A DNA stretch of 64,000 nt from an uncultured Gammaproteobacteria bacterium (GCA_964422865.1 CAYRCU010000002.1:8323-72322), one strand, 5' to 3'. Counted from the stretch's first letter, positions 24,464 to 60,592 are shown. Notes: generated from the sequence alone by a model not told the origin. Made by a program: numbers and translations.

Positions 24464-26785
24464 ATGGATATATTGGAACTGGTGTTTTATTCTCTGATTA
24501 TTTTGACTTTGGCATTTATTGTTGGAGTGGGGTTAGGGTGGTTTTTTTTCAATATTTGGAAACATAGAAGGAGAGAGAAGAGGAGTTTAGATTCAGTACT
24601 TTTGGAGGTGGCGGTTCCGAGGGGGAATGAAATAAAGATCGATGCTATGGAGCAGCTTATTTCTTCTTTGTATTCGGTTAGGAAGGGTGGATGGAAAATG
24701 CGTTTTGATGCACAGCCTGTGATTAGCTTTGAGATTATTGCCAGACCTGAGGATATTCGGTTTTATGTTTGGACGTTTAGAAAGCTTAAGGATCTTGTGG
24801 AGAAGCAGATTCACGGGGCTTACCCGGATGCACAGGTGGAGGAAGTTGAGGAACAGAATGTTTTTAGTGAAGAGGGGAAGGTTGCTTATAAAGCGTTTCA
24901 GCTTAAGAAAGAGAATTTTTATCCCATTAGAACTTACAAGGAATTGCCTACCGATTCCATGGCTTCTATTACTTCGGCTTTGGCCAAAATGGGTGAAGGA
25001 GAGGCAGCAATTATTCAAGTGTTGATTTCACCTGCGGATTCTAAATGGCAGGGCGGAGGGAAAGATTTTATTTCAAGCACAAAGAAGAGTGAAAGTGATC
25101 CTGAGAAGGCGAGCTATTCGACCTCTGCGAGGAAACTTGAGGCCGTAGAGAATAAAGTAGGAAAACCCGGATTTGAAACTTCCATTAGAGTGGTTGTTGT
25201 AAGCAGCAGTGAGGAGGCTGCAAAAGTGCATCTTTCGAATATTTCAAGTGCTTTTGAACAATTTAATGGAGAGTTTAACGGATTTGGGGGGAGGAAAATC
25301 CGGAATAAAGGGGCTTTTATGGAGGAGGTTATTTACAGGTATCACCCGATTTTTAACTTTGGGGGAAACAGGGTGAGCATATTAAATGCAGAGGAGATTT
25401 CAACTGTTTTTCATTTTCCAAATAAGCTTATTACTACCCCTCATATTTTTTGGCTGAATGCGAAGACTGCTCCCGCTCCTTCTGAAATTCCCACTGAAGG
25501 GTTGTACCTTGGGCTAAGCCGCTATCGAGGAATGGAAAGGAAGGTTTATATTTCCGAAGAGGATAGGCAGAGGCATATGTATATTATCGGGAAGACGGGG
25601 ACCGGAAAGAGTGAGTTTTTGAAAGCAATGATACGACAGGATATTAATGCCGGGCACGGACTTTGTTTTATGGATCCTCATGGAGATGCTGTGGAGGACC
25701 TTTTGAATTACATTCCCCCGGAGAGGGCAGAGGATGTTATTTACTTTAGACCGGGGGATACTGCGCGTCCGATGGGACTGAATCTGTTGGAAGCTAAAAC
25801 CGAGGATCAGAAGCATTTTGTTTCCACTTCTGTTATTAACATGATGTACAAGCTTTTTGATCCTTATAAGACCGGCATTGTGGGGCCCAGGTTTGAGCAT
25901 GCTGTGAGGAATGCGATGCTTACTGTGATGAGTGAAGAGGGGACAACGTTTATTGAGGTGATGAGGATACTGACTGATTCGAAGTATGTGCAGGAGATGC
26001 TGCCTAAAGTCCAGGACCCGATTGTGAGGAGGTATTGGACGGATCAGATTGCACAAACAAGCGACTTCCATAAATCTGAGGTTCTTGATTATATAACCAG
26101 CAAGTTCGGGAGATTTGTTACCAACAAAATGGTTAGAAATATTATTGGGCAAAGCAAGAGCAGTTTCAATTTTAGAGAGGTTATGGATAACGGGAAGATA
26201 CTTCTTATTAACCTTAGCAAGGGAGACCTTGGAGAGGAGAACTCGAACTTTTTAGGTTTAATTTTGGTACCCAGAATATTGATGGCCGCTATGAGCAGGG
26301 CCGACATGCCGGAAGAACAAAGAAGGAGCTTTTATTTATATGTTGATGAGTTTCAGAATTTTGCCACTCCTGATTTTGCTCAAATATTATCCGAGGCGCG
26401 AAAGTATCGCCTAAGCTTGACGGTTGCCAATCAGTTTATAGGGCAAGTGGATGAGGAGGTTAAAAATGCTGTTTTTGGGAATGTTGGAACCTTGGTTTCT
26501 TACAGGGTGGGGGTGACGGATGCAAATTATTTGGCGCATGAGTATAGGCCTGTGTTTGAGGAGGATGATTTATTAAACATTGAGAGATATCATGTTTATA
26601 TAAAGACGACTGTAAACAATGAGCCTGTTCAGCCTTTTAGTATGGACATGACTATGGATATGGACGAGGTGAGGAAAAAGAGTAATCCGAAAGTTGCGGA
26701 AGTGATTCGGGAGATGAGCAGACTTAAGTACGGAAGGGACGCGCGATTGGTGGAGGCTGAGATTGCGAGGAGGGCGAGGTTGTAG
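24464..26785 (+). CDS. type IV secretion coupling protein-like ATPase (TraD/TrwB/VirD4 family), N-terminal TM
   Basis: IIGKTGTGKSEFL Walker A, DPHGD, FRPGD...GLNLLE, YVDEFQNF Walker B-like; resembles the TrwB GATGTGKS...DPNGD...NPxD pattern. Confidence 0.6.
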   Translation: MDILELVFYSLIILTLAFIVGVGLGWFFFNIWKHRRREKRSLDSVLLEVAVPRGNEIKIDAMEQLISSLYSVRKGGWKMRFDAQPVISFEIIARPEDIRFYVWTFRKLKDLVEKQIHGAYPDAQVEEVEEQNVFSEEGKVAYKAFQLKKENFYPIRTYKELPTDSMASITSALAKMGEGEAAIIQVLISPADSKWQGGGKDFISSTKKSESDPEKASYSTSARKLEAVENKVGKPGFETSIRVVVVSSSEEAAKVHLSNISSAFEQFNGEFNGFGGRKIRNKGAFMEEVIYRYHPIFNFGGNRVSILNAEEISTVFHFPNKLITTPHIFWLNAKTAPAPSEIPTEGLYLGLSRYRGMERKVYISEEDRQRHMYIIGKTGTGKSEFLKAMIRQDINAGHGLCFMDPHGDAVEDLLNYIPPERAEDVIYFRPGDTARPMGLNLLEAKTEDQKHFVSTSVINMMYKLFDPYKTGIVGPRFEHAVRNAMLTVMSEEGTTFIEVMRILTDSKYVQEMLPKVQDPIVRRYWTDQIAQTSDFHKSEVLDYITSKFGRFVTNKMVRNIIGQSKSSFNFREVMDNGKILLINLSKGDLGEENSNFLGLILVPRILMAAMSRADMPEEQRRSFYLYVDEFQNFATPDFAQILSEARKYRLSLTVANQFIGQVDEEVKNAVFGNVGTLVSYRVGVTDANYLAHEYRPVFEEDDLLNIERYHVYIKTTVNNEPVQPFSMDMTMDMDEVRKKSNPKVAEVIREMSRLKYGRDARLVEAEIARRARL

Positions 26786-26815
26786 CGAGGAGTTTGTGGT
26801 AAAATGTGGTGGTTT

Positions 26816-26888
26816 GGAGCCGTAACTCAGTGGTTAGAGTGCCAATCTTATAAGTTGGAAGTCGATGGTTCGAATCCATCCGGCTCCA
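26816..26888 (+). tRNA. tRNA-Ile (anticodon TAT)
   Basis: 73 nt cloverleaf: acceptor GGAGCCG/CGGCTCC, D stem ACTC/GAGT, anticodon stem CCAAT/GTTGG with loop CTTATAA, T arm GATGG-TTCGAAT-CCATC. Confidence 0.75.
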
Positions 26889-27180
26889 CAAAACAGTTTC
26901 GCCGTACGTCTTCGGAACGCATTGAAAAGAACTTCGTGTTGTGCATGGCGAATCCATCCGGCTCCACAAAACAGTTCCGCCGTACGTCTTCGGAACGCTT
27001 TGAAAGGAAAGAAGTTTATGCATGGCGAATCCATCCGGCTCCACAAAACAGTTTCGCCGTACGTCTTCGGAACGCATTGAAAAGAACTTCGTGTTGTGCA
27101 TGGCGAATCCATCCGGCTCCACAAAACAGTTCCGCCGTATGTCTAAAGGAACGCATTGGAAGGAAGTTTGGGAGTTTGTT
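26871..27180. repeat. 4 tandem units (~78 bp) that each begin with the 3' end of the tRNA-Ile(TAT) gene
   Basis: GAATCCATCCGGCTCCACAAAACAGTTYCGCCGTACGTCTTCGGAACGC... starts at 26871, 26949, 27026 and 27104; the first unit is the tRNA 3' end itself. Confidence 0.85.
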
Positions 27181-27182
27181 AA

Positions 27183-28046
27183 TTAGAGTTCTTCGAGCAC
27201 CTGTTTTTTGCCGGGTTCTTTTATTTGTGCAAGTTCAAGATAGCGCTCTGTGGTCGAGAGGCGTTTGTGACCCGCGGCTTGAGAGATTGTTACAAGGTCA
27301 ACTCCGCGCTTTAAGTTTTCTATGATGAACGTGTTTCTGAGATCGTTGACTGAATAGCCCGGGATTTCCGCTTTTTGCATGTAGCGATCGATTGCGGCTC
27401 TGATGTTTCTTACTGCCAGGGGATGTCCGTTTTTGCTTATAAACAGGTATTCTGATTGAGTGTTTGAACGGGATCTGATGTAGGTTTCGATGGCTTCTTT
27501 GGCCGGTTGGTTGAGGAAGATTTTCCGCTCAGGTTGGGTGGCGTGGGCTTCGATGAAAATTTCTCCCTTCTTGATGTTTTTGAGTTTTAGGTTTGCAACT
27601 TCTGATATTCTGAGGCCGGTCTGGAGAATGATTTCAACTATTGCTGCCATTCTGGGGTCTGTACGAACGACGTCTCTTAGGGCTCTATATTCGATTTGGG
27701 AGAGGAATTTGGGTGCAGTGTTTTCGATTTTGGGGTGTGAAACGTCTTTTGAATGGTCGAACTGGATTACTCCCTGATCTTTGGCCCATCTAAAAAAGGT
27801 TTTGACGGCATTTAATTTTCTTGAGACTGATTTGGGAGTATATTTTTGTGCAAGAAGGGTGTCGCGAAAGGTTTCGAGATCTTTCTGTGTTATATCGGAA
27901 ACCACGCTTTTTGAAGTTTTTGCGAGATGTTGAGTTAGTTGTTCTAAATCAGATTTATAGGCTAGAATGGTTGAGGGCGAGCGACCTAGCTCTTGGAGAT
28001 GAGATATGAACTTTGGTAGTAAGATTATTAACGTTTCCTGGCTCAT
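27183..28046 (-). CDS. tyrosine-type site-specific recombinase/integrase
   Basis: C-terminal catalytic region AGHKRLSTTERYLE (HxxR...Y) plus upstream R; 287 aa; stop codon abuts the tRNA-fragment repeat array. Confidence 0.8.
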   Translation of the reverse strand: MSQETLIILLPKFISHLQELGRSPSTILAYKSDLEQLTQHLAKTSKSVVSDITQKDLETFRDTLLAQKYTPKSVSRKLNAVKTFFRWAKDQGVIQFDHSKDVSHPKIENTAPKFLSQIEYRALRDVVRTDPRMAAIVEIILQTGLRISEVANLKLKNIKKGEIFIEAHATQPERKIFLNQPAKEAIETYIRSRSNTQSEYLFISKNGHPLAVRNIRAAIDRYMQKAEIPGYSVNDLRNTFIIENLKRGVDLVTISQAAGHKRLSTTERYLELAQIKEPGKKQVLEEL

Positions 28047-28079
28047 TTTTGTGGATTTGGTTTATATCATAGCATAAAA

Positions 28080-28523
28080 ATGTGTCACGTCAACACTATA
28101 AGATATGTTATTATAAGCATGAAAAGTGATATTAAAACAGCCGGTTTAACCTTAAAAATTGGGTTTTTGATGAGACACGCTTACCTTGTTTTGGCTTTTT
28201 TGGTGGCGGCCAGTTTGGTTCGAAATATGATAAGGGTGATTTCTGCTCAAAAGAAACTGGATGAGGTTAGAGAGAGACTTGTTGAGTTTGAAAGGGAGAA
28301 CAAGGAGCTTGAGAATGAACTTGAGAAAATTTCGAGCGAGTTTTATGTGGAGAGTCAAGCGAGGAATAAGCTGGGACTTGCGAGGGAGGGTGAGGTGATT
28401 TTGGTATTGCCTTCAGAGGAGAAGGTGAAGCAGTTTTCAACAAGAAGAACAGAAGATGAAAAATATACATTTCCACCCCCAAACTGGAAAAAATGGATAG
28501 AAATGTTTATAGGCTCGAGTTAA
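28080..28523 (+). CDS. cell division protein FtsB/DivIC-like (septum formation initiator)
   Basis: Single TM helix followed by a coiled coil and YVESQARNKLGLAREGEVILVLP, typical of the FtsB/DivIC C-terminal motif; true start probably at an internal Met. Confidence 0.55.
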   Translation: MCHVNTIRYVIISMKSDIKTAGLTLKIGFLMRHAYLVLAFLVAASLVRNMIRVISAQKKLDEVRERLVEFERENKELENELEKISSEFYVESQARNKLGLAREGEVILVLPSEEKVKQFSTRRTEDEKYTFPPPNWKKWIEMFIGSS

Positions 28524-28602
28524 GTTTGAAACCTTCAATGTGGCTGGGTTCGATTTCTTGCAGTGTTTGAGCTGGGAGGTTATAATTGCTGTGTTCTTTA
28601 CG

Positions 28603-28672
28603 TGCGGGGTAGTGTACGGCTGCACGCGAGGCTCATAATCTCGCAGACCGGGTTCGATTCCCGGCTCCGCAA
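28603..28672 (+). tRNA. tRNA-Met (anticodon CAT), compact
   Basis: Acceptor TGCGGGG/CTCCGCA, D stem GTGT/GCAC, anticodon stem CGAGG/TCTCG with loop CTCATAA, T arm CCGGG-TTCGATT-CCCGG. Confidence 0.65.
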
Positions 28673-28690
28673 CACGGATAAACTAGTTGG

Positions 28691-28849
28691 GGTGAGCTTG
28701 GGTTGGGAAGCAGGAGCTTGGCCAACTGGATATTAGATTAGCCAGGGTAGCTCAGTTGGTAAGCAAAGCTTGGCCAACTGGATATTAGATTAGCCAGGGT
28801 AGCTCAGTTGGTAAGCAAAGCTTGGCCACCTGAGCAAATTGATAAGCCA
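28691..28849. repeat. tandem units made of the tRNA(CAT) 5' fragment followed by a hairpin-forming conserved motif
   Basis: Units at 28741-28792 and 28793-28849 are GCCAGGGTAGCTCAGTTGGTA + AGCAAAGCTTGGCCA(A/C)CTG...; a degenerate unit lies at 28691-28740; downstream CCAACTG is complementary to the D-loop CAGTTGG. Confidence 0.8.
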
Positions 28850-28922
28850 GCCAGGGTAGCTCAGTTGGTAGAGCACAGGATTCATAAACCTGCGGTCGCG
28901 AGTTCGATCCTCGCCCCTGGTA
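28850..28922 (+). tRNA. tRNA with anticodon CAT (Met or Ile2-lysidine type)
   Basis: GCCAGGG acceptor, TAGCTCAGTTGGTAGAGC D arm, anticodon loop TTCATAA, T arm GCGAG-TTCGATC-CTCGC, 3' CCCTGGT. Confidence 0.7.
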
Positions 28923-28927
28923 CTTTT

Positions 28928-42802: not shown

Positions 42803-43350
42803 TGAGGGTGATTGTGGGATTGGGAAATCCGGGAGAGGAACATGAGGGGACGCGGCATAATGTTGGTTTTTGGGTGGTTGAAAGACTTGGTGTGGTAGGG
42901 GACGCTTTATTTTCTGTTCGCAAAAAGCTGGAGAGTGAGATATTGGTGATTGGAGACCTGGTTCTTGCAAAACCTACCACTTATATGAATTCGTCGGGGA
43001 GAGCCGTTTCTAAGTTGCTGGGTTATTACAAGGTTTCTTTAGATGAGTTTTATGTGGTGCACGATGACTTGGATATAGCTTTGGGGGAATACAAAATTCA
43101 AAAGGGAAAGGGGCCGAAGGATCACAAAGGTGTGGAGTCTATTGAAGGGAATGTCGGAAGCAAGAGTTTTTGGAGAGTTAGAGTTGGAGTTGAGAACAGA
43201 GGCAAAGAAAACGGGCGCGGCCAGGTTGGGCGCGCTCACAAAATTTCTGGGAGGGATTACGTGCTTCGGAAGTTTAGTGCAAGTGAGAAAGAGAAGATTG
43301 ATAAAGTTATAGAGAAAGTTGTTGTAGATTTGAAAGCAAGACTTTTATGA
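42802..43350 (+). CDS. pth: peptidyl-tRNA hydrolase
   Basis: MRVIVGLGNPGEEHEGTRHNVGF N-terminus characteristic of Pth. Confidence 0.85.
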   Translation: MRVIVGLGNPGEEHEGTRHNVGFWVVERLGVVGDALFSVRKKLESEILVIGDLVLAKPTTYMNSSGRAVSKLLGYYKVSLDEFYVVHDDLDIALGEYKIQKGKGPKDHKGVESIEGNVGSKSFWRVRVGVENRGKENGRGQVGRAHKISGRDYVLRKFSASEKEKIDKVIEKVVVDLKARLL

Positions 43351-43634
43351 GTAAGAAGGATTTTGTTGCCATTGGTGATGTTTTGGATAATTATGATGTG
43401 GAGGAAGATAAATATATTTCCAGGGAGTTCCAGAAGTATGGGTATGATCTGGCAAAAGAGCTGGGAGATTTGAAACACAAGGCACTTTATATAAAGCTCG
43501 CTAAGGAAACACCCAGAGGTTTTTTAGAAGCTGCCAGGAATTTTGTAAAGGATGCTCAGAGGGTGAGAAGCAAACCAAGACTTTTTATGTGGAAGCTTTC
43601 AAAACTGAAAGCTGAACACACAAAAGCGAAGTGA
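43347..43634 (+). CDS. hypothetical protein whose 3' end seeds a tandem repeat
   Basis: 95 aa; C-terminus LFMWKLSKLKAEHTKAK is duplicated three times downstream. Confidence 0.35.
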   Translation: MSKKDFVAIGDVLDNYDVEEDKYISREFQKYGYDLAKELGDLKHKALYIKLAKETPRGFLEAARNFVKDAQRVRSKPRLFMWKLSKLKAEHTKAK

Positions 43635-43805
43635 TTATGTGGAAGCTTTCGCAGCTGAAAGCGAAGAAGGCTGAACACACAAAAGCGAAGTGATTATGTG
43701 GAAGCTTTCAAAACTGAAGGCTGAACACACAAGAACAGAGTGATTATGTGGAAGCTTTCAAAACTGAAAGCGGAGAAAGCGACAAACAAGGGAAGAAAGA
43801 AGAAT
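43585..43805. repeat. 4 tandem units (50-62 bp), each a mini-ORF MWKLSKLKAE... with its own ATG and TGA
   Basis: TTATGTGGAAGCTTTCAAAACTGAAAGCTGAACACACAAAAGCGAAGTGA and variants at 43585, 43635, 43694 and 43744. Confidence 0.8.
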
Positions 43806-45004: not shown

Positions 45005-45298
45005 ATGGACCCAATTAATAATGACAAACAAGATCCAGTAGTACAGCCAGCGGGCGATCAGCCGGTTGAGCCAGCGGCACCTGTGACAGATCCAGGTGTG
45101 TCTCCTGCTACTCCTTCAGCGGACCCAAGCGTGTCTCCTGCTACTCCTTCAGCGGCGGCAGACGAGAGTGTGCCAACGACAGACGAGAGTGTGCCAGCGG
45201 CACCTGTGACAGATCCAGGTGTGTCTCCTGCTACTCCTTCAGCGGCGGCAGGTGAAGCAGTTGATGAGAAGGAGCCTGAGGAGACTCCTGTTACTTAA
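45005..45298 (+). CDS. Pro/Ala/Thr/Ser-rich low-complexity repeat protein (hypothetical)
   Basis: Internal nucleotide repeat CCTGTGACAGATCCAGGTGTGTCTCCTGCTACTCCTTCAGCGGCGG at about 45081 and 45196; encodes PVTDPGVSPATPSA repeats. Confidence 0.35.
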   Translation: MDPINNDKQDPVVQPAGDQPVEPAAPVTDPGVSPATPSADPSVSPATPSAAADESVPTTDESVPAAPVTDPGVSPATPSAAAGEAVDEKEPEETPVT

Positions 45299-49681: not shown

Positions 49682-49956
49682 ACACTTCCGAGTGGTAGAT
49701 TTGGTTGTAATGGTAGAGCGTTTTGTTTCGGAAGATTTTGTGGTTTTAGCGTGTCCGGTTGCTGATGGTTTTCCGCCCTGTTGCAGAGGTTGCGGCGGTG
49801 GCTGGCCGGGTACAAAGGCGACGACGAGGAACCTTACTGAGGCTGTGGTGAAGGAGAGATTAGATCCAAATAAGCTGGGTTGTCAGCCATTGGTTGATAG
49901 AGCTAGAGCAGGTATAAATGAACTTAAGAGAGCTTCTTTAGTATCAAAATCTAGGT

Positions 49957-50028
49957 GACCCCACAGGGAATCGAACCCTGATTTGCACCTTGAAAGAGTG
50001 CCGTCCTAAACCGTTAGACGATGGGGCC
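49957..50028 (-). tRNA. tRNA-Glu (anticodon TTC)
   Basis: Reverse complement GGCCCCATCGTCTAACGGTTAGGACGG; anticodon stem GCACT/GGTGC; loop CTTTCAA; T arm CAGGG-TTCGATT-CCCTG. Confidence 0.8.
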
Positions 50029-50039
50029 TGAAATGTTCA

Positions 50040-50097
50040 TGCATACCCATCGTCATGCGGTGCAAGCACCTGTATTTTCAATATAGACGATGGGGCC
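50040..50097 (-). repeat. partial duplicate of the tRNA-Glu 5' end with an adjacent complementary arm
   Basis: GGCCCCATCGTCTA (tRNA nt 1-14) recurs at 50084-50097; GACGATGGG, complementary to nt 4-12, lies at about 50046-50054 (minus-strand sense). Confidence 0.6.
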
Positions 50098-51051: not shown

Positions 51052-52547
<1,496 letters not shown>

Positions 52548-52719: not shown

Positions 52720-53742
52720 ATGGATGATACTGCCCGACCAAGAATGATGGTTGAAGAGGTTCCTTCTGTGTTTCCGCAGCAAGAAGCTCAGGGGGTGGAT
52801 GAAGTTGTTCAAAAGCTGCCTGTGGTATCTAAAAGGAGTTTTTCTTTTAGAGCATTGGTTTTTATAGTTCCGGGAGTTCTTCTTTTGGTTGCGATACTTG
52901 TTGGAATGTATTTGGCAGATATTTTTTTTGAGGGAAATGAACAAGTTGTTGTTACTTCAACCCCCTTTCCTTCTTTGATTCCTGCCACGCCTGTTGCTTC
53001 TTTGGCTCCTGTTTCAAAATTATTGCTATATGTAAATGGGGACGGGGGATTTAAGTTTAGTTATTTGGATGATGTGGAGATCTTGGAATGTGCGGGTAGA
53101 GTGGAGTTGTTTGCTAATAAGAGTGTTCAGAAAACTTGTGAAGGAATGGGGGTTGTGTCGGTAATTTATGATGAGGATCAGTTTGAGTCAATTCAAGGGT
53201 TTGAGACAAGTGGGAAGGAGTTGGGGGAGAGAAAGTTGTTGGTGGTTTTGAGGGATGAGAGATATAGAAATGTTTATCAGAAGGTGGTGTTGAGTCTTAA
53301 GGCTTTAGTTGTTGATACTTCGGACTGGAGCTTGTATGAGAACGCTGTTGGAAAATACAGCTTTCTTTACCCCTCGGACTGGAAAGTTACGGAGCTTGAG
53401 AGTGGGAATGTTGTAGTTCAAAAAGATGAAGAGGAAAAGGACCACTGGATTTATCTTGTTGAATATACGGGAAGTGTAAGTGATGCTGAGCTTACGGCTA
53501 GTGAGATTTCTTCTTCTACTGTTGGTTTGGCTGGTTGGGACGGAGTACCCGAAGTGAATGTTCGCAATCTTTCCGGAGGGACAGCGCAGGTGATTGAAGG
53601 AAAGCTTGGAGATGTGTGGCAAGTGTATGTGGTTTTGTGGTACAAGGACAGATTGTACCAAATGAGTTGGGTGGATACTTTGAGTAGACAGGAGAGTGCA
53701 AACTTTGAGGCGATTATATCCAGTTTTGAACTTGTGAATTAG
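52720..53742 (+). CDS. hypothetical membrane-anchored protein (lies between the 16S and 23S genes)
   Basis: 340 aa with an N-terminal TM (LVFIVPGVLLLVAILVGMYL); no family recognised. Confidence 0.35.
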   Translation: MDDTARPRMMVEEVPSVFPQQEAQGVDEVVQKLPVVSKRSFSFRALVFIVPGVLLLVAILVGMYLADIFFEGNEQVVVTSTPFPSLIPATPVASLAPVSKLLLYVNGDGGFKFSYLDDVEILECAGRVELFANKSVQKTCEGMGVVSVIYDEDQFESIQGFETSGKELGERKLLVVLRDERYRNVYQKVVLSLKALVVDTSDWSLYENAVGKYSFLYPSDWKVTELESGNVVVQKDEEEKDHWIYLVEYTGSVSDAELTASEISSSTVGLAGWDGVPEVNVRNLSGGTAQVIEGKLGDVWQVYVVLWYKDRLYQMSWVDTLSRQESANFEAIISSFELVN

Positions 53743-55877
53743 TGATCTTTTGAAGATTTTTTACCCCAACGTTCTTGAGAGATTCTTATTACTTTACTTC
53801 TGTTTTGGTTTGCTGATGTTGGAAGCGGAAGAGTGTTGGCTAAAAACGGACGACTTGTATAGCCATCTATTGTAAGCTTTGCTGCTATTTGAAAGTTGTC
53901 CAGGTTTACAAGATCCTTTTTTTCGAAAACTTCTGCAAATTCTTTATATAGCACTTCGGCGTCTTCAGCCCCTATGGCAAAGGAGATAAGAGAGCCTACG
54001 TTTCCAAGGATTGCTTTTTGCACTTCTTCTGGGATTTGGGCCATGTATTGATTGGCAAGCATTAGGTTTAGGCGGTATTTTCTTGCTTCTGAAAGAATTT
54101 TAATGAATGATTCTGTAGCGAAGTTTTGAAACTCGTCAACGTAAAGAAAGAAGTCTGTGCGCTCTTCCATGGGGAAATTGACCCTGCGCATGGCTGCTAG
54201 TTGAAATTTTGTAATGAGAACTGCTCCCAGGAGTGCTGCGTTATCTTCACCGAGACGACCTTGAGAGAGATTTGCCAGGAAGATTTTTTGATTATTCATT
54301 ATGTCATCGAAATGAATTGTGCTTTTAGGGCTTCCGATGATACGACGAATTAGGGGGGAGGTGACAAATTGTCCAACTTTGTTTTGAATAGGGGAAATGG
54401 CTTCTTTTTGGAGTCGGTCCGGCATTTTTTCATATTCTTGCTTCCAAAAGTGAATGAGACTTTGATCTTTGACTTGTTCGAGGGCCCTTGCTCTGTAGCG
54501 GGTATTTGCAAGAAGTTTTAGAACATCTTGCAGGGTTGCTCCGTTAATGTGGGTGAGTGTTAAAAACGAGTTTCTGAGAATGTATTCCATACGAGCTGAC
54601 CAAACATTGGCCCAGATTTTTGTGAATACTGCCATGAGTCCGGAGACAACTAGCTCTGCTTCTTCTTGATTGGTGACTTCCAAGGGATTAATGACGATGG
54701 GTGACTGCCGATCTGAGGGATTAAAATAGATGGTGTCGTTTATTCTGTGACTTGGAATGTAGTTTAAGAGATCTTCACAAAGGTCGCCGTGAGGGTCAAT
54801 TACACCAAGACCTCGGCTTTTTTTTATGTCGTCGATACACATGTTTGCGATGAGTGTGGATTTCCCTGTGCCGGTTTTTCCCACGACCCAAATATGGCGC
54901 CTTCGATCATTGTTTTTTATTCCAAAGATTGTGTCATGGTTTTTGAATTGGGTGCGTGCAAAGAAGTTTACCAAAGCTTTTTCTTCAGTTGTTTTGTCGG
55001 TTGCGATTGGAAGGTTATCGGGAGCCTCGGAAAGGACGGAAGTCCCCCAGGCGATGGAGGCGGTTTTTACTTTTTCGCTGGGGAGGTGCCAGAGAGTAGC
55101 GAGCTCCATGATGTTTAGGATTTGTTTGTCGGTAACAGTTCTTTCAAGTAATGCTTTTTGAGACTTTGATTTTGATTCCAACAGGCCTCTTTTTTTAGTT
55201 ACAAAGCTGTTTCCGTCGGATCGAGTGAATACTCCAAGAGCAGATGAAAGTTCCGTAAGGACCCTTTTGTTGTTTGAGGCGATGCGAAGGGAAACCAAAA
55301 AACCTGGGTAAGAAATTTTTTCTTTTATAATGGAAGCGTCCGGATGTGGGGAGTAAGTTCCATCCTCATTTTTTGTGCCGTGGTCCGCGTAACTTTGACC
55401 TGTGGATTGCCATTTGGTGCTTGTAGCCTCAAGGGCTAATTGGATTATTGTTATTTCGGTGGGGTTACCTTTGGTGAGAATTGTGAGAAGGCTTGAGAGA
55501 GGATCGATATCGGTGAAATTTGTATAAGTAGCCAGAGGATAGTAATTACCTCTTTTTAGAGTTAATTCTTTGATATAGAGCGGGGACTCGCTTTTTAGGG
55601 GATCTTGGGTTGGCTCTATTATTACAAGAGGGTATGATGATCGGATTTGAGCCTCTATAAATGGCAGTAGTTCAGTGTTACAGGTTATTTGAAAGTGGAT
55701 TTGTTGGTTAATAAGGGCTATTTCGAGTGCAAGAGGGGCGGCGCGCTTGCCTTTGAGACGATCCAGATTCGAGACGCTGTTTATTTGGGTAAGGGTTGCC
55801 AGAAAAGTTTGAGCAGCTTCTGGTGTAACTTCTGTGTTCCTTGGTATTTTAAGAAAAAGAGTAGTGAGGTTTTGCAT
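53739..55877 (-). CDS. type IV secretion coupling protein-like ATPase (TraD/TrwB/VirD4 family), paralog
   Basis: VVGKTGTGKSTLI, DPHGD, FNPSDRQSPIVINPLE, YVDEFQNFAT; same domain order as the 24464 gene but lacking the N-terminal TM. Confidence 0.6.
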   Translation of the reverse strand: MQNLTTLFLKIPRNTEVTPEAAQTFLATLTQINSVSNLDRLKGKRAAPLALEIALINQQIHFQITCNTELLPFIEAQIRSSYPLVIIEPTQDPLKSESPLYIKELTLKRGNYYPLATYTNFTDIDPLSSLLTILTKGNPTEITIIQLALEATSTKWQSTGQSYADHGTKNEDGTYSPHPDASIIKEKISYPGFLVSLRIASNNKRVLTELSSALGVFTRSDGNSFVTKKRGLLESKSKSQKALLERTVTDKQILNIMELATLWHLPSEKVKTASIAWGTSVLSEAPDNLPIATDKTTEEKALVNFFARTQFKNHDTIFGIKNNDRRRHIWVVGKTGTGKSTLIANMCIDDIKKSRGLGVIDPHGDLCEDLLNYIPSHRINDTIYFNPSDRQSPIVINPLEVTNQEEAELVVSGLMAVFTKIWANVWSARMEYILRNSFLTLTHINGATLQDVLKLLANTRYRARALEQVKDQSLIHFWKQEYEKMPDRLQKEAISPIQNKVGQFVTSPLIRRIIGSPKSTIHFDDIMNNQKIFLANLSQGRLGEDNAALLGAVLITKFQLAAMRRVNFPMEERTDFFLYVDEFQNFATESFIKILSEARKYRLNLMLANQYMAQIPEEVQKAILGNVGSLISFAIGAEDAEVLYKEFAEVFEKKDLVNLDNFQIAAKLTIDGYTSRPFLANTLPLPTSANQNRSKVIRISQERWGKKSSKDH

Positions 55878-55932
55878 ATAACTATTATATAAGTATATAG
55901 GGAAGAAGTAGTTGATGTGTAGGGTTTTTGGG

Positions 55933-56006
55933 TGGGCCTGTCAGGATTCGAACCTGAGACCTCCAAATTATCAGTTTGGCGCTCTAACCAACTGAGCTAC
56001 AGGCCC
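55933..56006 (-). tRNA. tRNA-Ile (anticodon GAT)
   Basis: Reverse complement GGGCCTGTAGCTCAGTTGGTTAGAGCGCCAAACTGATAATTTGG...; loop CTGATAA; T arm TCAGG-TTCGAAT-CCTGA. Confidence 0.8.
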
Positions 56007-56245: not shown

Positions 56246-56317
56246 GAGATGGATTGGAACTGGGCCGATAAGAACCTGGCTTTGCCAGAACCTTGACGCC
56301 CTGCTCGTTAATACTCG

Positions 56318-56432
56318 CAGGCCGTTAGCTCATCTGGTAAGCAAAGCTTGGCCAGCTGAGCTGATTGATAGATTAGGGCCGTTAGCTCATCTGGTAAGCA
56401 AAGCTTGGCCAGCTGAGCTGATTGATAGATTA
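56318..56432. repeat. 2 tandem 57-58 bp units made of the tRNA-Ala 5' fragment followed by a hairpin-forming conserved motif
   Basis: G(G)GCCGTTAGCTCATCTGGTA + AGCAAAGCTTGGCCAGCTGAGCTGATTGATAGATTA, twice; CCAGCTGAGC is nearly complementary to the D-arm GCTCATCTGG. Confidence 0.8.
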
Positions 56433-56505
56433 GGGCCGTTAGCTCATCTGGTAGAGCGTCCGGTTTGCATCCGGGAGGTGGCCGGTTCGAGTCCGGCACG
56501 GTCCA
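56433..56505 (+). tRNA. tRNA-Ala (anticodon TGC)
   Basis: GGGCCGT acceptor with G3:U70; D arm TAGCTCATCTGGTAGAGC; anticodon loop TTTGCAT; T arm GCCGG-TTCGAGT-CCGGC. Confidence 0.8.
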
Positions 56506-57215
56506 CTCGCGAGGCTCGTTGCCCGTTTGACTCGAGGAGCGCGGAGAACAAAGGACCTTTCGGTACTATGCACGGCGAGTCCGGCACGGTCCACAAAGCA
56601 ATTTGCTTTTGACTTTTGAATATCATAATTGATTGATGGTTTTTAAAAGTCAGTAGCAAAAAAGTGAGATTGTTCTTTAACATCTGAAGAGAATTTAGGT
56701 CGAAAGTCTTTACAACGCAGACAGTGGATGCCTTGGTCTAAGTTACCGAAGAAGGACGTACAAGGCCACGATAGTCGTCGGGGAGCTGCCAAGAAGCTTT
56801 GATCCGGCGGTGTCCGAATGGGGAAACCCACCCCGCTTTGGCGGGGTACTTGCAGCCCAAATTTTTTGATTTATCAGAAATATTAAGTTGCAAGGGGGAA
56901 CCAGGGGAACTGAAACATCTAAGTACCCTGAGGAAAAGAAATTAAATAAACGCCTTTGGCGTAAGATTGCCTGAGTAGCGGCGAGCGAAACGGCAAGAGC
57001 CCAAACTTTGACCTTTGCCTTCGGGTGAAGGACAGAGGGTTGTAGGATCCTAATATGGGACTTTTAACGGTAGTAGAACAGCATGGAAATGTTGGCCATA
57101 GAAGGTGATAGCCCTGTATACGAAACTGAAAAAAGCCCTAAGGAATTCCTGAGTACCACGGTCAAAATCTGTGGGAATCTGGGGGAACCATCCTCCAAGG
57201 CTAAATATAACTTAG

Positions 57216-57261
<46 letters not shown>

Positions 57262-58740
57262 GGGAGGGGAGTGAAATAGTAACTGAAACTGTTTGCGGAC
57301 AAACCGAGAGAGCCTGTGCTTGCATGGGTGATCTCGTGCCTATTGAAGAATGAACCGGCGAGTTGTCGTATGCTGCCAGCTTAAGTCAGTTAAATGACCG
57401 AGGCGTAGCGAAAGCGAGTTTGAAAGAGCGAAGAAAGCCTTGTGCTTTCATAAGTAGCATGCGGCAGACCCGAAACCAGGTGATCTAACCATGAGCAGGG
57501 TGAGTCCTATCGAAAGATGGGAGGAGGCCCGAACCGGTGTAAGTTACAATTTGCTCGGATGACTTGTGGTTAGCGGTAATATGCCAAACGAACCTGGAGA
57601 TAGCTGGTTCTCCCCGAAAGGTCTATAGGGACCGCGGCACGGAAAGGAACACTGATGGTAGAGCTACTGGATGGGGCAGCGAGAGGTAACTCAAGTTGTC
57701 TCAACCAAACTCCGAATAGCAGTGTGGGACGTGCTAGACAGCCGCATGGGGCTAAGCTCATGCGACGAAAGGGAAACAACCCAGACTCTCAGATAAGGCC
57801 TCTAAATCTTGACTAAGTTTTAAAGGAAGTTTTTTTCCACAGACAGCTAGGAGGTTGGCTTAGAAGCAGCCATCCTTTAAAGAAAGCGTAACAGCTCACT
57901 AGTCGACTTGCCTGCGCAAGCAGGTGGGAAGAAAGCGCCGAAGATTTATCGAGGATTAAGTCAAGTGCCGAAGCTGGAGCCCCGCCTTTGGCGGGGGGTA
58001 GGGGAGCGTTCCAAGGGCAGTGAAGTTCAACTGTAAAGTTGGATGGAGCGCTTGGAAGTGAGAATGCCGGTATGAGTAGCGTACAAGAGAAGTGAGAATC
58101 TTCTCCGCCGAATGCCCAAGGTTTCCGTCGGAAGGTTCGTCCGCGACGGGTTAGTCGGCTCCTAAGGCGAGGCCATATGGCGTAGTCGATGGATAGCTGG
58201 TTAAAATTCCAGCACTTTGGTAAATTCGCTTTTAACTGAGGACTGACGGAGTGAAAGAGCTTGTGGCAATTATTGAATTTTGTTGCAGAAGCCTCACCCA
58301 TCTGGTGGGAAAATCCGCCAGAGACGCAAATTATTGCGAATGGTTGAGGTGGTGCTAGTCCTGCGAGAGCAGGGCGACATGAGCTAATAGCTTCCCAGAA
58401 AAGGTTCGCAGTGAGAATTTATCAAAGCCGTACCGCAAACCGACACAGGTGGGCTGGTAGAGAATACTAAGGCGAGCGAGAGAAGGAGGGTTAAGGAACT
58501 CGGCAAATTAGCTGGACGTAAGTTCGCAAGATGTCCTGCCTCCAAATAGTAATATTGGAGGTCGCAGCTAACGATTGCTGGTCGACTGTTTATCAAAAAC
58601 ACAGGTCCGTGCAAACTCGAAAGAGGAAGTATACGGGCTGACGCTTGCCCAGTGCCGGTAAGTTAAGGGGATGGGTGATTTGCCTTCGGGCACTTTGCTT
58701 TGAACCGAAGCTCCGGTAAACGGCAGCAGTAACTATGAAC

Positions 58741-59065
58741 AAGTTGTAGTTGAGAGTGGCCTCCGCTTGAGGCGGAGTATTCGTCACTCCGTTGATTGAT
58801 AACAACGAAAAATTTGGCTATATGCTGGAACATCCCGCAAGGTCATTGGTAGGCCACCAGTTTGGCAACAAACTGGTTAACTCCTGAAAATCCAATGAAT
58901 AGGGACAATCAGCAGGAAAGACCCCGCTTAGCGGGGAATCCTCAGAGACTATACGCCAAACCTCGCAATAGTGAGGATGATATAGTCCGATCCTTATGGA
59001 GACATAGGGAGTCCTGCGGAAACGACGGGACCACCCCGCCAATGCGGGGGAGTAACAAAAAAGAA
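58741..59065 (+). mobile_element. ORF-less intron in the 23S gene (E. coli-equivalent site about 1917, inferred by flank alignment)
   Basis: Exon sequence AACTATGAAC | about 325 nt insert | TCTACGGTAGCGAAGTTCC interrupts the conserved AACTATAACGGTCCTAAGGTAGCGAAATTCC region. Confidence 0.5.
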
Positions 59066-59742
59066 CTGTTCTACGGTAGCGAAGTTCCTTGTCACTTAAT
59101 TGGTGACCCGCACGAAAAGCGTAACGAGCTAGCAACTGTCTTGACCCTTCACTCGGCGAAATTGCGTTGGCTGTGAAGACGCGGCCTACTTCCACCAGGA
59201 CAAAAAGACCCCGTGAAGCTTTACTGTAGTCTGGCATTGATTTGTGCAATGCAATTGTTTAGTGTAGGAGGGACCTCGCCTTTGGCGAGGGCCAATGAAA
59301 CACCTCCCTTTGAATTGTGTCAAATCTTACTTAAGGGCCTTTCAAACAGGTCTGAGGAAAGTGTCAGATGGGCAGTTTATCTGGGGCGGATCCCTGCTAA
59401 AAGGTAACGCAGGGGCACAAAGGTTGGCTTACCACGGATGGAAATCGTGGGGAAAGTGTAAAGGCATAAGCCAGCTTGACTGCGAGAGTGACAACTCGAG
59501 CAGGTGCGAAAGCAGGTCTTAGTGATCCTCCGATGCGCCATGGGTGTGCACGGAGCTTAACGGATAAAAGCTACTCCGGGGATAACAGAGTAGTCGCGCC
59601 CGAGAGTCCATATCGACGGCGCGGTTCGCTACCTCGATGTCGGCTCAGGATATCCTGGGGCTGGAGAAGGTCCCAAGGGTTGGTCTGTTCGCCCATTAAA
59701 ATCCTACGTGAGCTGGGTTCAGAACGTCGCGAGACAGTTGAC

Positions 59743-60592
59743 GCTATAAGACATTTTAGCGTGACATTTGAGCTGTCTCATCCTATCGATGTTCACTGGG
59801 ACATGAGCCCGAAATATATCTTTTTGTCATAATACCGAGATGGATACTCGGAGTAATATAGGAATAAAAAATCTGGCTATATGCTAGGAAGTCTCGTCAA
59901 ACAGTAGAGTACTAGTATAATATTTATGTACTAGTAAAAATCTCTGCTCTGAGATTACTAGCAGGAAAGACTAGTTTTTTATGTGTATGTCTAATTTAAT
60001 TTCTGATGACTACATTGCTGGGTTTGTTGATGGTGAGGGGATGTTTTATATTGGTATTGTCAAATCAACCGGTTCAAGTAGAAACAAGAGCGGTTGGCAG
60101 GTAATTTACTTTTTTAAGGTATCCCAAAACCCAAACGGTAAATTTGTTCTTGATCAAATCAAGAAACGTTTGCAGTGCGGGTATATCAAAGAAAACAGCA
60201 AATCGGATCCCACAGACAAGTCACTTGCATTTGTGGTTCGTGACTTGCCAAGCATCAGAGATAAAGTTGTTACTTTTTTTCAAGATAAGTTGGTTGTTAA
60301 GAGAAAAACTTTACGGAAATTTAGTAAAGTAATCGAATTGGTGGACCAAGGAAAACATCTTGAGAAAGATGGGATGAAACAAATATTAGACATTGCGTAT
60401 TCTATGAATACCAAAAAAAGAAAGGTTTCGAAGGATAAAATTTTGTCATCCTTTTAAAAAACTAGAATCCCCACAGGCCATACGCCAGACCCCGCCAGAG
60501 GCGGGGAAGACATGGTCGGACCCCCATGGCGACATGGGGAGCTAGCGAGAAAAAGAAATCAGCTAGCCCAAGAATTACTTGGTAACAATAAT
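59743..60592 (+). mobile_element. group I-type intron in the 23S gene encoding a LAGLIDADG homing endonuclease
   Basis: Insert after GAGACAGTT; exon resumes at GTCGGACTCTATCC...AGTACGAGAGGACC; shares the motif AAAATYTGGCTATATGCTRGAA with the first intron. Confidence 0.65.
59981..60457 (+). CDS. LAGLIDADG homing endonuclease (single-motif family)
   Basis: LISDDYIAGFVDGEGMFYIGI LAGLIDADG motif; 158 aa; located inside the 23S intron. Confidence 0.8.
   Translation: MCMSNLISDDYIAGFVDGEGMFYIGIVKSTGSSRNKSGWQVIYFFKVSQNPNGKFVLDQIKKRLQCGYIKENSKSDPTDKSLAFVVRDLPSIRDKVVTFFQDKLVVKRKTLRKFSKVIELVDQGKHLEKDGMKQILDIAYSMNTKKRKVSKDKILSSF

Follow-up and report, generated by a model that had tools for sequence, protein, structure and literature searches.

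Several described systems come close to the structures reported here. Genomic islands and prophages that target tRNA genes, together with their integrase-less tandem remnants, show a direct repeat running from the T-loop to the 3' end of an intact tRNA gene, which is the classical shape of a tRNA att site, and they can build up in tandem at one tRNA. REP/BIME elements with their RAYT proteins and the mini-elements of the IS200/IS605 group, whose chemistry is established, are tiny hairpin units with a fixed oligonucleotide beside the foot of the hairpin; they form alternating-hairpin arrays, are presumably mobilised in trans and insert 3' of a fixed pentanucleotide which the element regenerates, so that the target is not lost. 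Integron attC sites are imperfect hairpins with an extra-helical base, and their cassettes form arrays of small units beside a recombinase of a Xer-related family. The Xer proteins themselves (archaeal XerA, bacterial XerC and XerD) are two-domain recombinases of about 290 residues. The locus described here shares features with each of these. It lies in a 64,000-nt stretch of an uncultured bacterium (GCA_964422865.1 CAYRCU010000002.1:8323-72322), called the window below and numbered from its first letter, where the gene of a Xer-like tyrosine recombinase is separated from an intact tRNA-Ile(TAT) gene by a tandem array of tRNA 3' ends, and where a second array, of tRNA 5' ends, precedes a nearby tRNA-Met gene. 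Our preferred explanation, to which we give a probability of roughly 0.55, is that two unrelated things stand side by side: a fixed Xer-like gene, and arrays built from two families of tiny non-coding modules that are presumably mobilised in trans.

The tRNA-Ile array consists of units of 77–79 bp, in which the intact gene is followed by three further copies of its 3'-terminal 19 nt (tRNA positions 56-74, CGAATCCATCCGGCTCCAC). Tandem Repeats Finder (TRF) placed it at 26871-27165 with a period of 78, 3.8 copies and 88% matches. An earlier interpretation of this DNA, the sequence-only reading, had described four units that start with the last 17 nt of the tRNA. The 17-mer GAATCCATCCGGCTCCA indeed occurs four times in the window, always at this array (dinucleotide shuffles gave a mean of 0.2 and 0/100 reached 4), and the copied part proved to be 19 nt long. 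All four copies of the 19-mer lie between the tRNA and the recombinase stop codon; with up to three mismatches allowed, no other was found beyond the recombinase gene or elsewhere in the 64 kb. Only 1-2 nt separate the stop codon from the last unit. At a spacing of 155, units 1 and 3 share 99% identity across 119 nt, and the array is therefore a duplicated two-unit block. On the other side of the recombinase, the ftsB-like gene, the tRNA-Met and the array of 5' fragments were found as had been read: a DivIC ORF (open reading frame) is followed by two tRNA-Met genes, and the array before the second one (28702-28875 by TRF) has 52-bp units with two extra exact copies of tRNA positions 1-21 (28741-28761 and 28793-28813). 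Each copy is followed by the 15-mer AGCAAAGCTTGGCCA (28762-28776 and 28814-28828) and then by a spacer.

The two arrays differ in their folding. The tRNA-Met unit forms a hairpin more stable than shuffled controls (z = -2.2), whereas none of the four tRNA-Ile units, folded on both strands, does better than its shuffles (z = -0.05 to +1.3). A reading of the 3' type as structured RNA was dropped on this ground. The hairpin GTTYCG...CGGAAC that the sequence-only reading had seen in each tRNA-Ile unit is present as sequence, but the C/T change within it is one-sided (G-C against G-U or G-T) and not compensatory, and the fold does not rise above shuffles. A promoter and terminator scan of 26.5-29.1 kb gave nothing within the arrays, and Rfam at permissive E (up to 5) returned only tRNA or antisense-tRNA artefacts in 26780-27200 and 56250-56720.

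Copy number was found to differ between closely related strains. Two contigs of JGI metagenome 3300033141 (L129 and L130) are 98.9% identical to the window, with a TrpRS homologue at 99% identity, and carry two copies of the 19-mer against four. In L129 the tRNA-Ile is followed by one spacer, one more 19-mer and a spacer-like trailer that reaches the recombinase stop codon; in L130 it is followed by one spacer, a 19-mer with one mismatch, AAA and the stop codon, which makes a clean 78-nt module. The tRNA-Met array of L130 has the same number of units as the window, with different unit sequences. Since copy number differs between strains of about 99% identity while the recombinase and its neighbours stay fixed, the repeats are real and turn over fast. 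This agrees with a secondary idea of the sequence-only reading, tandem amplification of a junction. The count of four is that of this assembly; the strain contigs carry shorter versions. It could be argued that the arrays are artefacts of assembly or amplification, as the exact count rests on one assembly and short-read contigs break at the arrays. However, independent assemblies of another metagenome and of dozens of unrelated projects contain the same junctions, and we regard the probability of an artefact as negligible. The short-read contigs of SRR15988951 break at the tRNA-Ile, tRNA-Met and tRNA-Ala arrays as true repeats would; its contig L001 corresponds to window 27110-28744 and breaks inside both arrays.

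The recombinase ORF of 287 residues carries the domains Phage_integrase (PF00589) and SAM-like (PF02899) in Pfam, so that the tyrosine recombinase of the sequence-only reading stands. It has 5897 homologues at E<1e-10, several of them named XerD by their source. The two-domain build, the length, the best profile and structure-sequence matches (XerA, XerC and XerD in NCBIfam; XerA 5hxy and XerD 1a0p in PDB) and a location beside division-related genes are those of a Xer protein. On the other hand the protein falls below every NCBIfam Xer cut-off (XerA 164 against 220 bits, XerC 157 against 335, XerD 146 against 330), and its active site is unusual. In three independent alignments the catalytic K172 of XerD (GNKER) aligns with an invariant P172 in a TQPER motif, and the HxxR histidine of XerD, H244, with an invariant N234. 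R146, R237, H260 and Y269 are invariant in the orthologue family. Because of these scores and replacements the protein is called Xer-like and not a demonstrated Xer; it is best placed as a new, atypical member of the Xer-like group.

Scanning one genome per species, orthologues of 284-289 residues and 59-75% identity were found in 25 Woesebacteria/Microgenomates genomes. The order RNR, cobalamin adenosyltransferase, small protein, VirD4-like ATPase, tRNA-Ile(TAT), recombinase, DivIC, two tRNA-Met, TrpRS and FtsH is fully or almost fully kept in most of them, some loci being truncated or lacking individual members, and the VirD4-like ATPase, the syntenic upstream neighbour, is 69-79% identical. 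The recombinase is thus a vertically inherited chromosomal gene at a conserved locus and not the integrase of an element. This bears directly on the proposal of the sequence-only reading that the recombinase and the repeats form a minimal integrative element or its remnant, with the 19-nt repeats as attL/attR cores. The att-like extent of the repeat, a recombinase gene that abuts the tRNA 3' end and converges on it, and the rearranged state of the tRNA-Ile site in many relatives would suit such an element. However, the recombinase stands at the same position in 25 species and only the repeats vary, the core is found on one side of the gene only, and composition is flat (G+C content 0.38-0.48 across 20-34 kb with no step) among housekeeping neighbours; we conclude that the recombinase is part of neither an integrative element nor a remnant of one. 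The missing catalytic Lys and His, and the presence of the same module types without such a gene at tRNA-Ala, tRNA-Glu and many other tRNAs, speak further against it, and the proposal now appears very improbable. The sequence-only reading had itself set its element against a chromosomal Xer-type gene with repeats of fixed copy number: the gene is essentially of that kind, and the fixed copy number is contradicted by the two versus four copies.

Arrays without a recombinase are found in the window itself, where four of the eight tRNA genes (Ile(TAT), Met b, Ala and Glu) have copies of their own terminal fragments. The tRNA-Ala gene is preceded by two 57-bp units, 100% identical, each consisting of tRNA positions 1/2-21 (the first 20-21 nt), then AGCAAAGCTTGGCCA and then an inverted D-arm-like stretch, and it is followed by a module of the 3' type. 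Upstream of tRNA-Glu (49954-50028, minus strand) an inverted copy (GACGATGGG) and then a TATGCATG motif come after the copied 5' end. No recombinase was found among the window ORFs near either of these arrays, which are 22-28 kb from the tRNA-Ile locus. The 15-mer AGCAAAGCTTGGCCA is common to the tRNA-Met and tRNA-Ala arrays, 27.5 kb apart, and occurs nowhere else in the window. A second motif, TRTGCAYG, is shared by the tRNA-Ile, tRNA-Ala and tRNA-Glu junctions, with 5/8 of its window occurrences there.

The 5' modules belong to a widely distributed family. The exact 20-mer TGGTAAGCAAAGCTTGGCCA was found in 88 metagenome stretches, which reduce to 79 distinct sites. At 30/79 sites the 5' end of a tRNA gene is duplicated, with the intact copy within 150 nt downstream, and 16 isoacceptors are concerned (for Gln, Gly, Lys, Thr, Trp, Pro, Leu, Ile, Met and Ala). 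A TGGTAnAAT box, resembling an extended -10 promoter element, follows at 11/79. All 79 sites are preceded by TGGTA, partly by search design. The anatomy is as follows: the target up to TGGTA; then AGC-AAA-GCT-TGGCCA; then the reverse complement of the 0-20 nt that precede TGGTA; then a short loop or leader; then the target again up to TGGTA, continued by the rest of the gene. The AGC-AAA-GCT mini-hairpin and TGGCCA are constant and stand directly after the D-loop TGGTA, so that the constant sequence abuts the internal break of the displaced fragment and the intact gene is regenerated downstream. At tRNAs the preceding 14-21 nt are duplicated, sometimes with the leader. Variants keep the stem through paired changes (AAGG-GAA-CCTT, GCTTGCCA). 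Of the 79 sites, 53 have a single copy, 20 have two and 6 have three, and unit number differs between related contigs, for example one against three units ahead of the same tRNA-Gly. In named Woesebacteria genomes (L012, L014, L020) the constant 15/16 nt AAGCAAAGCTTGGCCA with at most two substitutions, or a hairpin-preserving variant of the 20-mer, is present.

Simpler insertions were also seen. In L058 and L121 a plain insertion of 21-23 nt, TGGTA...TGGTA, with a small second hairpin of its own, lies in the 5' half of a dead tRNA-Ile(GAT); here and in arrays of 30-34 nt the element ends in TGGTA again. In both contigs (L058: about 1990-2233; L121: 567 to about 810) the tRNA-Ile(GAT) genes are nested: the D-loop of the outer gene is interrupted by this minimal TGGTA element and its anticodon loop by a cassette (GAT/GAC, the slash marking the break, plus a GC-AAA-GC hairpin) with the intact inner tRNA inside it.

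The 3' type mirrors the 5' type at the T-loop. It was surveyed in the same metagenome loci, which had been picked by the 5' motif only. Copies that start exactly at C56, that is at TT/CGA of the T-loop, follow tRNA-Glu (two loci), Leu, Gln, Thr, Tyr and Trp in addition to tRNA-Ile and tRNA-Ala of the window; the metagenome copies lie 48-70 nt past the tRNA gene. An intact tRNA is followed by a spacer of 50-70 nt ending in ...TTTGCAC(R) or TGCATGG, and then by the tRNA copy from C56 to the 3' end. The motif TGC[AG][CT] with 0-3 further nt stands ahead of all nine aligned junctions (seven other loci and window Ile and Ala) and also of the junction at the L114 tRNA-Trp; it is very unlikely that all ten share it by chance. 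The blocks TCACTTnGTTCG, CTTCGAtaGnGC and TATGGAATTTCATATTTTGCAC are common to the spacers, and GTCTTCGGAACGC of the window tRNA-Ile spacer compares with GTCTTCGATAATGC in L062. There is a second subtype with an AAGCGAAG mini-hairpin and an inverted piece of the T-loop. A trailer motif, CAC/ccTTCGACaaGCTCAGGGTTT, was also noted after tRNA 3' ends in L052, L060, L055, L104 and L123, and it is inverted ahead of the 3' fragment copy in L104 and L111.

The geometry of the 3' type invites another explanation, that the modules are scars of larger elements (phage, plasmid or island) that integrate into tRNA genes through integrases acting at the T-loop or D-loop. Internal deletion, as in cis-mobilisable remnants, would have left only the attP arms between two att cores, to be amplified in tandem later. 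The 3' type does have the exact attL/attR geometry of T-loop integrases, its spacers are related between loci as the attP arms of one element family would be, and a large serine recombinase ORF occurs in 4/88 loci. Against this, no full-length element was found at any of about 40 module-bearing tRNAs. Each module bears the exact end of its own tRNA across at least 16 isoacceptors, which would require constant att switching, and the 5' type is present also at promoter TGGTAnAAT boxes and in arrays of 30-34 nt, too small for armed integrase sites. Viral contigs scanned for the constant 19-mer of the 5' type gave 0 matches; a degenerate pattern of the 3' junction gave 10 matches there, presumably by chance at the information content of the pattern. 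Known tRNA-targeting elements differ from the present units in that these are 50-90 bp in size, carry no cargo and no element integrase, have a mirror-image 5' type and promoter boxes among their targets, and stand next to a recombinase that is a fixed host gene. An origin as scars is, in our opinion, unlikely.

According to the preferred explanation, modules carried in trans by an enzyme that would be encoded outside the window insert where tRNA genes are most conserved, the 5' type after the D-loop TGGTA and the 3' type at the T-loop. Either type leaves one intact gene and a displaced terminal fragment. Because insertion would regenerate the target, it could be repeated, or units could recombine unequally, and tandem arrays could grow and shrink fast. 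What the sequences show is the anatomy of the modules, their wide distribution, target specificity and tandem growth, the change of copy number between strains and the independence from the recombinase gene; the mobilisation in trans is our inference. A TGGTA end that is regenerated and a pairing at the foot of the hairpin, where TGGCCA of the 5' element can pair with either flanking TGG, resemble the single-strand chemistry of the HUH/REP or IS200/IS605 type. It should be noted here that, unlike in those systems, the stem is partly copied from the target, and long, variable target duplications restore the gene; no HUH transposase was found in the window ORF scans and none recurs in the 88 motif loci. 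The modules are akin to miniature non-autonomous insertions and to target-restoring tRNA elements, and are not demonstrated members of any named family.

A number of observations weigh against this explanation. Clustering of 498 ORFs from the 88 motif loci gave no recurrent transposase, reverse transcriptase or other family adjacent to the modules, and among 20 further window ORFs scanned with Pfam none encodes a transposase, a reverse transcriptase or a second recombinase. No standard transposition chemistry accounts for an inverted segment derived from the target or for a target duplication that varies from 5 to more than 40 nt. An nhmmer profile of the 3' spacers scored 9-25 bits, recovered mostly its training set and added only three members, so that the homology among these spacers is weak, suggestive but not strong. 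The last 19-mer, both in the window and in L129, runs into spacer-like sequence and not into an unrelated native trailer; tandem duplication therefore fits better there than repeated insertion. As to the fixed gene, the missing Lys and His put its catalytic activity in question, and a role in chromosome-dimer resolution is one that we infer from family and context only, within 64 kb and loci of 12 kb.

There may also be no element at all: the direct-inverted-direct structures could result when replication switches template or folds back at the quasi-palindromic D- and T-arms of strongly transcribed tRNA genes, and slippage could then amplify them. The inverted segment is copied from the local target, the last tRNA-Ile unit resembles a duplicated native trailer, and the 3' end of a protein gene (43585-43771) is also tandemly duplicated. 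Such a process would not account for an identical constant of 15-20 nt at 79 sites with unrelated flanks in many samples, for the recurrent TGCRY motif at the junctions of the 3' type, or for simple TGGTA-bounded insertions whose hairpin is not derived from the target. We consider it rather unlikely.

Relatives at the same locus show another kind of variability. In the more distant L004, L005, L007, L009 and L022 the site is empty, and only 9-24 nt separate the end of the recombinase ORF from the tRNA. Species-level relatives have no tandem arrays at this locus, and an exact tRNA fragment copy at only 1/65 tRNAs. Instead, divergent halves of another tRNA-Ile(TAT) often lie on either side of their tRNA-Ile(TAT). 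In L008, L012, L018 and L021 an intact tRNA-Ile(TAT) lies inside the anticodon loop of an older, divergent one, with junctions CTTAT/GACA... and ...TGTC/ATAA and with flanks of short covarying inverted repeats that include an TGACATGTCA-type hairpin; one or two old 3' halves remain in L017 and L020, and an inverted half in L007. The nested tRNA-Ile has the appearance of a mobile tRNA gene cassette taking the place of the resident gene. Across L002-L026 the flanking protein genes keep their order and orientation, with tRNA-Ile(TAT) inverted in L015 and L017, the first tRNA-Met inverted in about eight loci (L004, L005, L006, L014, L018, L024, L025, L026) and a distance of 9 bp to 3.3 kb between recombinase and tRNA. 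The tRNA-Ile beside the recombinase is thus a recombination hot spot across the clade.

Two candidates were rejected here. The variable interval that separates the recombinase from the VirD4-like gene does not represent a shared element, as it contains unrelated genes (UDP-glucose dehydrogenase-like, IS110 transposase in L010, 23S-IVS, TPR), and the palindrome TGACATGTCA, a possible dif-like site at first sight, is tied to tRNA-Ile remnants in five relatives and absent from the window locus. The IS110-family transposase ORF (L010:8109-9179) lies between tRNA-Ile(TAT) and the VirD4-like gene. In four relatives an initiator-like tRNA-Met, missed by ARAGORN, has an insert of about 185-210 nt in its anticodon loop, after position 31 (L011:3225-3484; L013:4513-4770; L016:4483-4742; L017:5123-5402); the insert is likely a small group I-type intron.

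It is mainly because of this hot spot that we still consider an active role of a host tyrosine recombinase, the Xer-like one or another, which would act in trans on folded single-strand hairpins as known for attC and for CTX-phage and Xer, insert the modules and drive the turnover of tRNA-Ile. The hairpins have an extra-helical G beside a crossover-like point, the adjoining tRNA-Ile(TAT) is rearranged more than any other tRNA in relatives (nesting, 3' halves, inversions), and arrays of small cassette-like units exist. However, the relatives carry the gene and have no tRNA-end arrays at the locus, though the constant motif occurs elsewhere within three of those loci. The active site is without Lys and His, and the 3-nt loops of the mini-hairpins do not match the central regions of 6-8 bp that known tyrosine recombinases use. 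Compared with integrons, no R/L box consensus, attI, integron integrase insertion domain or ORF cassettes were seen, and the arrays stand at many loci. Such a role is improbable in our judgement.

Searches of Rfam and of the open literature on tRNA gene fragments and repeats and on tRNA introns of the candidate phyla radiation (CPR) returned nothing that describes these structures, and the motif string appeared only in an irrelevant human-promoter context; within the reach of these searches the modules are apparently undescribed. More tentatively, and with less confidence than in the preferred explanation, CPR bacteria may harbour undescribed miniature elements aimed at invariant tRNA loops whose gene survives: a D-loop TGGTA family, a mirror T-loop TT/CGA family and, in relatives, whole tRNA-Ile cassettes entering the anticodon loop. 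These might spread through hairpins and single strands, possibly with the Xer-like protein beside tRNA-Ile(UAU).

Table 1. Features of the tRNA-Ile(TAT) locus, of the other arrays in the window and of old tRNA-Ile copies in relatives. Positions refer to the window unless a contig is named.
Feature	Position	Strand	Basis or remark
VirD4/TraD/HerA-like ATPase, 773 residues, DUF8128	24464..26785	+	Pfam DUF87, TrwB_AAD_bind, TraG-D_C; DUF8128 match on record
tRNA-Ile(TAT), intact	26816..26889	+	ARAGORN; Rfam tRNA 73.9 bits
Unit 1 spacer, E3-type, 59 nt, ends TGTGCATGG	26890..26948	+	Probably homologous to post-tRNA spacers in metagenome loci
Copy 2 of tRNA-Ile positions 56-74 (T-loop C56 to 1 nt past discriminator)	26949..26967	+	Exact 19-mer
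Unit 2 spacer, variant, ends TTTATGCATGG	26968..27025	+	Sequence, repeat comparison
Copy 3 of tRNA-Ile positions 56-74	27026..27044	+	Exact 19-mer
Unit 3 spacer, equal to unit 1 spacer	27045..27103	+	Repeat family D1: 26871-26989 and 27026-27144, 99% identical
Copy 4 of tRNA-Ile positions 56-74	27104..27122	+	Exact 19-mer
Final diverged spacer (E3-star), reaching recombinase stop codon	27123..27182	+	Counterpart in strain contig L129, none in L130
Xer-like tyrosine recombinase, 287 residues, atypical active site, separate from repeats	27183..28046	-	ORF, Pfam, orthologues
DivIC/FtsB-like septum protein	28080..28523	+	Pfam DivIC 6.4e-13; syntenic in relatives
tRNA-Met(CAT) a, without flanking fragments	28603..28673	+	ARAGORN
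5'-type array upstream of tRNA-Met b	28690..28849	+	One degenerate and two exact copies of tRNA positions 1-21
tRNA-Met(CAT) b, intact	28850..28923	+	ARAGORN, Rfam
5'-type duplication upstream of tRNA-Glu(TTC)	50029..50097	-	Copy of tRNA positions 1-14 at 50084-50097
5'-type array upstream of tRNA-Ala, two 57-bp units	56320..56432	+	100% identical; hairpin z = -2.7
tRNA-Ala(TGC), intact	56433..56506	+	ARAGORN, Rfam
3'-type module after tRNA-Ala	56507..56594	+	69-nt spacer ending TATGCACGG, then copy of tRNA positions 56-74 (56576-56594)
Nested tRNA-Ile / old halves	L008:1744-1934; L021:7415-7597; L018:4450-4583; L012:6881-7066		
Old tRNA-Ile halves	L020:6900-6995; L017:9768-9895; L007:6989-7028		

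The rest of the window showed further features. The 20 ORFs scanned in addition are housekeeping genes with two exceptions, the LAGLIDADG endonuclease of the 23S rRNA and another VirD4-like ATPase. The latter (53739-55877, minus strand) is a DUF8128 paralogue of the ATPase that adjoins tRNA-Ile(TAT); it adjoins tRNA-Ile(GAT) (55931-56006) and is placed between the 16S and 23S rRNA genes (51057-52544 and 56701-59790), which are about 4 kb apart with protein-coding genes between them. The 23S gene contains a group I intron (58727-59009; Rfam, 71 bits), and the LAGLIDADG endonuclease ORF (59981-60457) lies just past its annotated end. At 43585-43771, tandem units of 50-59 bp (3.1-3.6 copies) repeat the final 50 nt or so, including the stop codon, of a 95-residue ORF (43347-43634), a pattern of a gene end duplicated downstream at a protein-coding gene. 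Imperfect direct repeats of 33-123 bp are present at 45067-45245 in an apparent coding region.

The arrays break the short-read assemblies of CPR genomes and create pseudo-att sites that mislead predictors of islands and prophages, of which this locus is an example. Copy number that differs at 99% identity provides strain-level markers. For the enzymology of recombinases, and for the way CPR bacteria segregate their chromosomes, a conserved Xer-like protein without the catalytic Lys and His is a testable oddity. Should the modules be mobile, they would be selfish DNA that exploits the most conserved and abundant targets, the D- and T-loops of tRNA genes, without killing the host, the displaced end of the gene being carried or regenerated at a scale of tens of bases.

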